A DNA stretch of 32,000 bases, from contig JAJDBK010000005.1 of NCBI GenBank assembly GCA_029261405.1, forward strand, positions 1 to 32,000. Direction: 5' to 3'. Position numbers and translations under genes: made by a program. The notes beneath the pieces were generated by a model, which worked only from the letters and a program-made list of their open reading frames with translations, had not been told where the DNA came from and searched no databases. Every line of letters starts with the position of its first letter. The stretch's first letter is position 1. Below are positions 2,543 through 3,496 of the stretch, piece by piece. Origin of the DNA: Nitrospinaceae bacterium. Its GTDB lineage: Bacteria > Nitrospinota_A > UBA7883 > JAJDBK01.

Positions 2543-3496
2543 TTACATATATCCACCGATGATCTTTACTGTCAGTATCAATATACCGCCGCCGAAAAGG
2601 AGGGTCAAAGGTCTGATGTACCTGAAAACCTCCCGTTTGACTCCGCTGGGTGAGGTGTAGGGTGTGGCGCCGGTAAAGTTAAGGGCCAGAAACGCTGTGA
2701 CAGGCGGCATGGCCAATATATACGCTATAGCCAGAACAGCCTCCCCGTGGAGCCAGGCGTAACCCGCCACCGGGCAAGCCAGCGAATATCCGAGCCATAA
2801 CCCTTTTACGGTATAGTTTGATGACGGCAGGATCGGAAGCAGAATGGGAAACAGAACGGCGCCACCAATCAGAGCTGTGAGAGACGCAACAACGGACACG
2901 CCGCCATCCAGAAGAGCGAGTAGCCCGGTAATGGCAACCACCGGCCCGAATACATGCTTTACCTCTATTGGGATCAGCGCTACCCGGTCCATAAGCGGAA
3001 AACGTACCCGTCTCATGTAGGGGGTGACTTCTCCTGTCGCAAGATATTCGGGCAGATCAACCGCCATAACCGGTCCGTACACAACTTTAAAACCGGTCTG
3101 TTTTTTTACCAGATGAGCGGCGATTCCAGGACCGCCAAGTTGAGGAACGATGATACGGCGGGTCTCGATTTTCTCTTTCAGACCGGTACCGACTATCATT
3201 CTTACCATCTCTTCCGTGCCGAAAGTCCCTTTGCCAGCGGCGCACCAGACGTTTACCCCTTTTGTGTCGAGAACCAATATCCAGCCATCAACACCGCCAA
3301 GCGCGGACCTCAATGCGTCGAAACTTAACGTATAGTTTCCGGTGGCGAAGATCGGTGATTGAAGGCCCGGTTCACCTATACGATACAGGCCCGGTTCGAC
3401 CCTGCGCTCGCCTCGTCTGTAACCGATCCGCGCGAGAAAATGATCGAGCCTGTTGCTAAAAGTTATTCGACTGTCAGTGGGGAGAGAGATATTCAA
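2543..3496 (-). CDS. hgcA: Mercury methylation corrinoid protein HgcA
   Basis: 317 aa. The diagnostic cap-helix motif GVNVWCAAGKGTFGT is present (Cys85; motif at nt 3230-3253). Flanking blocks WILVLDTKG, IVPQLGGPGIAAH, VVYGPV and MRRVRFPL are collinear with the reference HgcA as I recall it. The C-terminal ~135 aa form 4-5 TM helices. The TTG start at 3496 is preceded by GGAGG inside the 3' end of the upstream CDF gene. Confidence 0.9.
   Translation of the reverse strand: MNISLPTDSRITFSNRLDHFLARIGYRRGERRVEPGLYRIGEPGLQSPIFATGNYTLSFDALRSALGGVDGWILVLDTKGVNVWCAAGKGTFGTEEMVRMIVGTGLKEKIETRRIIVPQLGGPGIAAHLVKKQTGFKVVYGPVMAVDLPEYLATGEVTPYMRRVRFPLMDRVALIPIEVKHVFGPVVAITGLLALLDGGVSVVASLTALIGGAVLFPILLPILPSSNYTVKGLWLGYSLACPVAGYAWLHGEAVLAIAYILAMPPVTAFLALNFTGATPYTSPSGVKREVFRYIRPLTLLFGGGILILTVKIIGGYM

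Follow-up and report, generated by a model that had tools for sequence, protein, structure and literature searches.

The window, by which we mean the whole 32,000-nucleotide (nt) stretch of contig JAJDBK010000005.1 (assembly GCA_029261405.1), carries on its minus strand a pair of adjacent genes that we assign to hgcA and hgcB. Apart from this pair, no genetic predictor of methylmercury (MeHg) formation by microbes is accepted, and each correct call lengthens the list of potential methylators. A first-pass annotation, made from the sequence alone, had called a bona fide HgcA in the open reading frame (ORF) at 2543-3496 on the strength of a cap-helix motif, a membrane domain and a neighboring ferredoxin gene. 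The coordinates of the ORF are correct as called; the strand, which the annotation left unstated, is minus. The pair and its parts are laid out as follows.

2543-3496, minus strand: hgcA, encoding a 317-amino-acid (aa) corrinoid methyltransferase from a TTG start codon (376 bits against NF040863, HgcA_corrinoid)
3002-3496, minus strand: N-terminal cytoplasmic corrinoid-binding α/β domain of HgcA, approximately residues 1-165 (matches to corrinoid iron-sulfur proteins, AlphaFold2, Foldseek)
3230-3253, minus strand: cap-helix motif NVWCAAGK, residues 82-89, with the predicted cobalt ligand Cys85 (translation checked)
2549-2974, minus strand: C-terminal membrane domain of HgcA with five predicted helices, residues 175-316 (Kyte-Doolittle, AlphaFold2)
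2244-2540, minus strand: hgcB, encoding a 98-aa 2x[4Fe-4S] ferredoxin from an ATG start codon (100.2 bits against NF040864, HgcB_ferredoxin)
3500-3506, minus strand: Shine-Dalgarno sequence GGAGGGG of hgcA, within the 3′ end of the upstream coding region (read from sequence)

Curated hidden Markov models assign the larger protein to HgcA. Its score of 376 bits lies about 100 bits above the cut-off of 275, and the alignment spans positions 4-322 of the 325 in the profile. The same protein scores 187 bits on the model for fused HgcAB-like proteins (NF043039, cut-off 285) and 71 bits on that for the γ subunit (AcsC) of the corrinoid iron-sulfur protein (CFeSP; NF003195, cut-off 306), where it matches only profile positions 323-445 of 450. 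The HMM comparison that the first-pass annotation had proposed is therefore passed for HgcA and failed for both related families. HgcAs from metagenome-assembled genomes (MAGs) or genomes of Desulfovibrio, Desulfitobacterium, Methanospirillum and Chloroflexia, which we used for calibration, score 404-508, 186-212 and 69-80 bits on the three models, respectively, the same pattern as the window protein; that of a Desulfovibrio MAG HgcA matches in particular. The smaller protein scores 57 bits on the fused HgcAB-like model, again below the cut-off of 285. Pfam is less specific, recognizing in the pair only a CdhD-type corrinoid domain (PF03599, HgcA residues 32-142, 52 bits) and generic Fer4 domains.

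The motif that underlies the original call is exact in both coordinates and translation. Nucleotides 3230-3253 encode NVWCAAGK, which fits the HgcA pattern N(V/I)WCA(A/G)GK, with Cys85 (codon TGC), and the HgcA translation contains the peptide GVNVWCAAGKGTFGT. By simple arithmetic, about 2.5e-6 chance occurrences of this eight-residue string would be expected in a six-frame translation of 32 kb. The stretch N82-V-W-C85-A-A-G-K-G90 shows no variation in an alignment of 27 HgcA sequences. In the alignment with CFeSP, the sequence '...SVLTAWAAGKF' lies opposite 'NVWCAAGKGTF' of HgcA and has Thr/Ala at these positions; the cysteine that distinguishes HgcA from CFeSP is therefore present here as Cys85.

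The remainder of the protein also separates it from CFeSP. A sequence search of the PDB returned CFeSP matches and no HgcA entry; the large subunits 2h9a, 4c1n and 4djd align with HgcA residues 32-146 at E values of 4e-11 to 4e-8. The two families share a homologous Rossmann-like cobalamin domain (AcsC/CdhE; 25-27% identity, root-mean-square deviation 3-4 Å over approximately 130 residues), which corresponds to residues ~318-434 of the 442-446-aa CFeSP chains. The N-terminal two-thirds of CFeSP has no counterpart in the window protein, which has a membrane domain instead. The multi-helix C-terminal domain expected in the first-pass annotation is evident both as hydrophobic segments in a Kyte-Doolittle scan and as five long helices in an AlphaFold2 model (residues 175-197, 199-222, 228-249, 253-272 and 283-316; pLDDT, the per-residue confidence, mostly >85). 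This model was built from the 27-sequence alignment without cobalamin or any other cofactor, with a mean pLDDT of 84 and a pTM of 0.70. Residues 1 to ~165 form alternating strands and helices. The top Foldseek match in the PDB is the published integrative HgcAB model, 9a0b_A (E 1e-17, 36% identity), followed by CFeSP structures at E values of 1e-6 to 4e-7. The loop that joins helices 3 and 4, a variable region in the family, is shortened by a seven-residue deletion.

The ferredoxin gene reported 2 nt downstream begins exactly 2 nt past the hgcA stop codon, on the same strand. Its product contains two CX2CX2CX3CP motifs, C17-C20-C23-C27-P28 and C50-M-E-C53-G-A-C56-x3-C60-P61, the second of which includes the ECGAC signature in its family form C(M/I)ECGAC. 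HgcB Cys73, the conserved cysteine expected about 12 residues past the second motif, is present in the sequence 'SGAGCAM', and two further cysteines, Cys91 and Cys95, lie in the tail ('GCDGECGGE'). Adjacency of this kind is common: hgcB lies directly downstream of hgcA in 55 of 81 loci, the window included. As for the start of hgcA, the TTG at 3496-3494 directly follows the TAA stop codon (3499-3497) of the upstream gene. It is the earliest possible start past that in-frame stop codon and the only one that retains the N-terminal residues conserved across HgcA homologues in the 27-sequence alignment.

The pair compares well with that of Pseudodesulfovibrio mercurii (Desulfovibrio desulfuricans) ND132, the reference system, characterized by both genetics and biochemistry. 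Both have hgcA followed by hgcB, a corrinoid domain joined to five transmembrane helices, the N-V-W-C-A-A-G-K motif with its cobalt-ligand cysteine, and an HgcB with two CX2CX2CX3CP motifs, Cys73 and C-terminal cysteines. In ND132, HgcA is a membrane-anchored cobalamin protein whose cap-helix Cys93 ligates cobalt in a 'Cys-on' arrangement (PMC11588087; PMC7305189); Cys93 of HgcA and Cys73 of HgcB are essential, and at least one C-terminal HgcB cysteine is required (PMC7305189; PMC11588087). The window HgcA differs in being only ~41-43% identical to a Desulfovibrio HgcA. A further difference from ND132 is that the gene upstream of hgcA encodes a cation diffusion facilitator (CDF) exporter rather than an ArsR-type regulator.

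HgcA belongs to a large family: 7,932 of the scored candidates match at E ≤ 1e-5, and GTDB species-representative genomes yield at least 598 matches; the exact 317-aa protein is already present in public collections (NCBI/Logan). The nearest homologues are only 55-59% identical, the best non-self match being at 59%. Among the matches listed, the named near homologues come from Anaerolineae/Chloroflexi and Methanoregula (53-57% identity). To place the protein, we built a neighbor-joining tree of 107 HgcAs with a CFeSP fragment as outgroup (315 columns, Kimura distances, 100 bootstraps). Rooted on CFeSP, this tree, which comprises HgcAs and not the fused or Nitrospina-type paralogues, nests the window HgcA among the 106 others. 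It pairs with P0002, a protein from a 1.4-kb JGI metagenome contig (96% bootstrap), and then with P0026 (67%), from the genome GCA_964395915.1, where an HgcB follows and where LptE and a BamD-like gene mark a diderm. All three fall within the broad group of Chloroflexota/Euryarchaeota type, in which bootstrapping gives the deeper nodes no support. The window pair shares with the Chloroflexota (Anaerolineae)/Methanomicrobia-type clade 53-59% identity over full-length alignments with its nearest named homologues listed, a place within the same super-group of the tree, and low HgcB scores (103-114 bits in that clade). It differs from that clade in its diderm host (BamA, LpxA/D/I, LolCDE) and in grouping with P0002 and P0026 in a small subclade of its own. 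As a side observation, five HgcA-family proteins of 440-620 aa (P0426, P0418, P0391, P0506 and P0505) carry the HgcA part at the C terminus behind 120-290 unmatched N-terminal residues. These extensions may reflect start codons called wrongly, or they may be genuine N-terminal fusions; no extension matches CDF.

These comparisons bear on whether the protein could instead be a non-methylating paralogue, either of the fused-HgcAB or marine Nitrospina 'HgcA-like' type or a CFeSP (AcsC) of the Wood-Ljungdahl pathway. The idea draws on the apparent Nitrospinota affiliation of the host (see below), on the placement of ocean Nitrospina sequences in a paralogue clade of unconfirmed function (PMC10083202), and on the fact that the only sequence-related solved structures are those of CFeSP. 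The marine Nitrospina sequences (Gionfriddo 2016; Villar 2020; Tada 2020) probably come from the same phylum as the window, and both share the conserved cap-helix cysteine. In published trees, however, the marine sequences group with the fused-HgcAB clade, distinct from the HgcA of confirmed methylators (PMC10083202), and they are reported without a neighboring hgcB and are functionally unconfirmed (PMC10083202). The window protein, in contrast, passes the HgcA model, fails the HgcAB-like model and is followed by hgcB after 2 nt; this separation from the marine type is drawn from the published descriptions. Fused HgcAB-like proteins such as that of Pyrococcus furiosus, which does not methylate Hg (PMC10083202), have homologous corrinoid, membrane and ferredoxin modules, but the window holds two separate genes, and both products score far below the 285-bit cut-off of that family. 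It is these HMM scores, together with hgcB being a separate gene, that exclude the fused and Nitrospina-type paralogues. For CFeSP, the scores, the confinement of the match to the cobalamin domain, the five-helix membrane domain and the Thr/Ala opposite Cys85 all contradict the assignment. We regard the paralogue explanation as extremely improbable.

The assignment we favor is that 2244-3496 on the minus strand holds true, canonical, unfused orthologues of hgcA and hgcB, and we consider it close to certain. The call of a bona fide HgcA made in the first-pass annotation is borne out by the HMM scores, the Cys85 motif, the membrane domain and the adjacent hgcB. Orthology, intact reading frames, the residues that mutagenesis found to be required, domain architecture and gene adjacency are all in place for the pair.

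By analogy with the characterized system, HgcB, as a two-[4Fe-4S] ferredoxin, would reduce the HgcA-bound corrinoid to Co(I). S-adenosylmethionine, the corrinoid methyl donor according to biochemistry published in 2024 (PMC11588087), would then methylate the corrinoid to a Cys85-ligated methylcob(III)alamin, from which the methyl group would pass to Hg(II) to form CH3Hg+. The HgcB thiols Cys73, Cys91 and Cys95 probably shuttle Hg(II) or MeHg. We infer from the same analogy that HgcA is loaded with cobalamin and that Hg methylation takes place in the host. Among hgcAB-positive methanogens in culture, eight of nine methylate Hg (PMC5893877), and the prediction of methylation is therefore strong but not certain. 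On the gene content, we think it likely that the organism is able to methylate Hg under permissive conditions.

Several observations weigh against these conclusions. The window HgcA has the lowest score on the HgcA model of all the HgcAs compared, and HgcB passes its own model marginally, at 100.2 bits, only 1.2 bits over the cut-off of 99. Both proteins are divergent; in a set of 5.8 billion proteins, nothing exceeds 59% identity to them. HgcB has 'GAGC' around Cys73 in place of the conserved 'GVGC' of ND132 (the form 'GVGCA' occurs in nearly all other HgcBs), and its tail reads CxxxC-GGE as opposed to the vicinal Cys94-Cys95 of ND132. In the cofactor-free AlphaFold2 model, the cap residues W84-K89 (window 3229-3246) have a pLDDT of <50 and are not helical, while the remainder of HgcA is modeled with confidence. 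The fused and Nitrospina-type paralogue sequences are absent from our tree, and the window contains no ArsR-, AbrB- or MarR-type regulator. One of the nine cultured hgcAB-positive methanogens made no MeHg above controls (PMC5893877), and for this host Hg methylation, expression and cofactor loading are genomic predictions.

Some of these points have a context within the family. Scores of only 103-114 bits are seen for HgcBs beside HgcAs of the Chloroflexi, Syntrophobacteria and methanogen types, compared with 119-134 for the Firmicutes/Desulfobacterota type; the low score is therefore a property of the clade rather than a defect. The tails of 54 other adjacent HgcBs from GTDB genomes are equally varied, with CSC, CTC, CxxC, CC and longer Cys-rich runs. 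The AlphaFold2 model neither confirms nor contradicts a cap helix in HgcA.

Beyond hgcAB, the window supplies evidence on the host. The genes on the far side of the locus are as follows.

4639-4911, plus strand: small Fis-family HTH_8 (helix-turn-helix) regulator, the last gene of the common backbone (PF02954, E 1.5e-11)
5105-7983, plus strand: hybrid histidine kinase (771 aa) and a TOL_0243-family YfiR-like periplasmic protein, between the GT39 and Fis-like genes
7990-19820, minus strand: outer-membrane/lipid A block from LolD to the GT39 glycosyltransferase, our taxonomic anchor, collinear with Nitrospinota MAG contigs

The window encodes BamA, Skp/OmpH, LpxD, FabZ, LpxA, LpxI, LolCDE, a ClpB-like ATPase, AroA, PurE, SurE and FtsH. 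From its outer-membrane and lipid A genes, the host is therefore a diderm bacterium, neither chloroflexotal nor archaeal. AroA has its best named relatives in Nitrospinota/Nitrospinae MAGs (62-67% identity), and nearly all named matches of >40% identity to the lineage-restricted GT39 glycosyltransferase come from Nitrospinae/Nitrospinota MAGs; M3_3B_026, the named relative that comes closest, is listed by NCBI under unclassified Nitrospinota. The order LolD, ClpB-like, BamA, OmpH (Skp), LpxD, FabZ, LpxA, GFO-family oxidoreductase, LpxI, GT39 and a divergently oriented Fis-like HTH_8 gene is shared with three Nitrospinota MAG contigs (L083, L086 and, in part, L085) at 47-84% aa identity, with OmpH at 29-37%. 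The Fis-like gene of the window is 48-53% identical to the gene directly after GT39 in these three contigs, whose genomes are ERZ25072999 for L083, GCA_016208975.1 for L085 and GCA_051418015.1 for L086. In the window, by contrast, the histidine kinase and YfiR-like pair is inserted between GT39 and the Fis-like gene. Judged by this gene content and order, the host is affiliated with Nitrospinota.

Synteny ends at the Fis-like gene. In the three relatives, transketolase or GroES genes come next, and their 10-kb flanks contain no homologue of the histidine kinase/YfiR-like genes, the CDF gene, hgcAB, or the K+ channel and cyclase-like genes described below; hgcAB therefore lies just past a synteny breakpoint. 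The break falls ~200 nt from the run that contains hgcAB, and the closest named HgcA homologues are from Chloroflexota and methanogens. Both facts could be read as signs of an assembly chimera, in which a Chloroflexota- or archaeal-type hgcAB fragment has been joined to an unrelated genome, so that the genes are real but the host assignment is wrong. The GC content, third-position GC content (GC3) and codon usage of hgcA and of the CDF gene are nevertheless indistinguishable from those of the housekeeping block and the rest of the window, which makes a chimera unlikely. The nearest relatives, P0002 and P0026, are not labelled Chloroflexota, and P0026 itself comes from a diderm genome. Moreover, disagreement between HgcA and species phylogenies through horizontal gene transfer is widely reported, the clustering of Chloroflexi with Euryarchaeota being a well-documented case (PMC7438021), and hgcA-positive Nitrospinota MAGs have been reported independently (PMC10349881; PMC12484752). 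A chimera is, in our judgment, very improbable. We also considered a recent horizontal transfer and rejected it for lack of any compositional signal in hgcA; any transfer was therefore old. The pair was probably acquired, not recently, from the Chloroflexota/Euryarchaeota-type pool of HgcA sequences.

A canonical hgcAB in this phylum has precedents. Nitrospinota MAGs of the class UBA7883 from mining-impacted paddy soil bear hgcA and were proposed to be (facultatively) anaerobic methylators (PMC10349881), and a Nitrospinota MAG from Challenger Deep/hadal sediment that bears hgcA or hgcAB was proposed to be the same (PMC12484752). The window resembles these as a non-Nitrospina member of Nitrospinota with hgcA or hgcAB. 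Canonical hgcA or hgcAB in such lineages is thus already published, and the window pair is a rather divergent addition to a large known family. Only two things about it are not routine: its host, affiliated with Nitrospinota, and its idiosyncratic coupling to a CDF exporter. It has been argued that Nitrospinota are foremost among Hg methylators in the oxic interior of the ocean, an argument that rests on the divergent 'HgcA-like' paralogue. Here, a genome affiliated with the phylum has a canonical, unfused hgcAB of a different, Chloroflexota/Euryarchaeota-type origin, inserted beside a conserved lpx/bam housekeeping block that in related genomes has no hgcAB within 10 kb. The arrangement supports the view that lateral transfer brought the capacity to methylate Hg into this phylum, in lineages that are anaerobic or live in sediment. 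The pair is a sequence suited to complementation testing, although its value is incremental.

The remaining features of the locus flank hgcAB directly.

3497-4441, minus strand: ZitB/CzcD-like CDF metal exporter (TIGR01297, Pfam)
1442-2269, minus strand: voltage-gated-type K+ channel homologue (Pfam Ion_trans, 108 bits; Ion_trans_2)
371-1432, minus strand: 353-aa protein, last of the same-strand run, with a C-terminal half that is divergent but resembles class III nucleotide cyclases (phmmer vs PDB)
4442-4638: AT-richer intergenic region of 197 nt between the divergent CDF and Fis-like genes, the presumed promoter region of the CDF-hgcAB run

The CDF protein scores 284 bits on TIGR01297 (cut-off 82) and 338 on the ZitB model, below its cut-off of 408, and contains the Pfam domains Cation_efflux and ZT_dimer. 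Its ORF starts at GTG 4441 (window 4333-4441) with a His-rich N terminus (HHHDH), and the exact protein is not in the public collection. Close homologues align from approximately residue 33-37, and Met37 may therefore be the true start. For the cyclase-like protein, residues 168-318 match CyaB (3r5g, E 3e-6) in a phmmer search against the PDB, while no Pfam or NCBIfam model matches the protein.

The five same-strand genes (CDF, hgcA, hgcB, K+ channel and cyclase-like) are tightly packed, with spacers of 0 and 2 nt and negative spacers. The CDF gene and hgcA share a reading frame with a single TAA between them, and the Shine-Dalgarno sequence of hgcA lies inside the CDF gene. Candidate start codons of the channel gene (GTG/ATG at 2269-2251) overlap the last codons of hgcB, an arrangement that suggests that the two belong to the same transcription unit. 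From the CDF gene through hgcA and hgcB to the channel gene, the minus strand shows no terminator-like site between genes. Given this absence and the contiguous same-frame junction, co-transcription and translational coupling of the CDF gene and hgcA are plausible, and the pair is probably expressed on one transcript with the upstream exporter. Read-through of the CDF stop codon, we observed in passing, would give a topologically plausible CDF-HgcA fusion.

Such an arrangement raises the possibility that HgcAB, while a true orthologue, serves a metal-homeostasis module together with the coupled ZitB-like CDF and perhaps the K+ channel and cyclase-like proteins, with MeHg as a by-product. HgcAB might then act on another metal(loid), by methylating or otherwise handling it, or might condition the passage of Hg(II)/Zn(II) through the inner membrane. 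The abutting in-frame stop and start codons, the embedded Shine-Dalgarno sequence and the tight packing of the run fit this view, and the literature acknowledges that the native role of HgcAB is still open (PMC10083202; PMC11588087). If true, a functional coupling of CDF and hgcA would tie HgcAB to divalent-metal handling and offer a handle on both its native purpose and the route by which Hg(II) reaches it. The linkage is, however, unique to the window: at the 80 other hgcA loci, no CDF gene precedes hgcA, and the sole other CDF match among them, in L063, is weak and on the opposite strand. What lies upstream in the closest two relatives of HgcA is LexA or a small unrelated ORF. A concatenated CDF+HgcA query found no protein, among 1.84 billion representatives, that matched both of its halves, and the shared frame is a one-in-three coincidence. 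We therefore rejected a conserved CDF-hgcA linkage, given its absence from the 80 loci and the absence of a fusion among the representative proteins. A metal-homeostasis role with MeHg as a by-product appears unlikely to us, and the more specific proposal of hgcAB wired into a metal-efflux operon, with a ZitB-like CDF translationally coupled to hgcA and the channel and cyclase-like genes following, somewhat less likely still. Our preferred reading remains that of a canonical hgcAB pair.

Many of the 80 other loci (L001-L080), which come from other phyla, have a small AbrB/SpoVT-like gene (22 loci), an ArsR-like HTH gene (13) or a MarR-like gene (8) just ahead of hgcA. An Rfam scan of the whole window gave no match, and neither a cobalamin nor any other riboswitch was detected. 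On the far side of the presumed promoter region, the N-terminal region of the histidine kinase scores 191.3 on a model for kinases near YfiR-like proteins, just below the cut-off of 194. In the housekeeping region of the window, four ORFs of 141-300 aa, all on the minus strand (19824-20414, 22877-23779, 28108-28893 and 31500-31925), have no Pfam or NCBIfam match. Within the 197-nt intergenic region, short repeats occur at chance level only. A σ70-like match lies at 4542-4513 on the minus strand, in a number of such matches equal to chance expectation; the counts of promoter and terminator matches equal those in shuffled sequence, and we therefore make no regulatory claim. During inspection for promoters, we also spotted by eye a weak σ54-like element, TGGCAA-N5-TTCCT.

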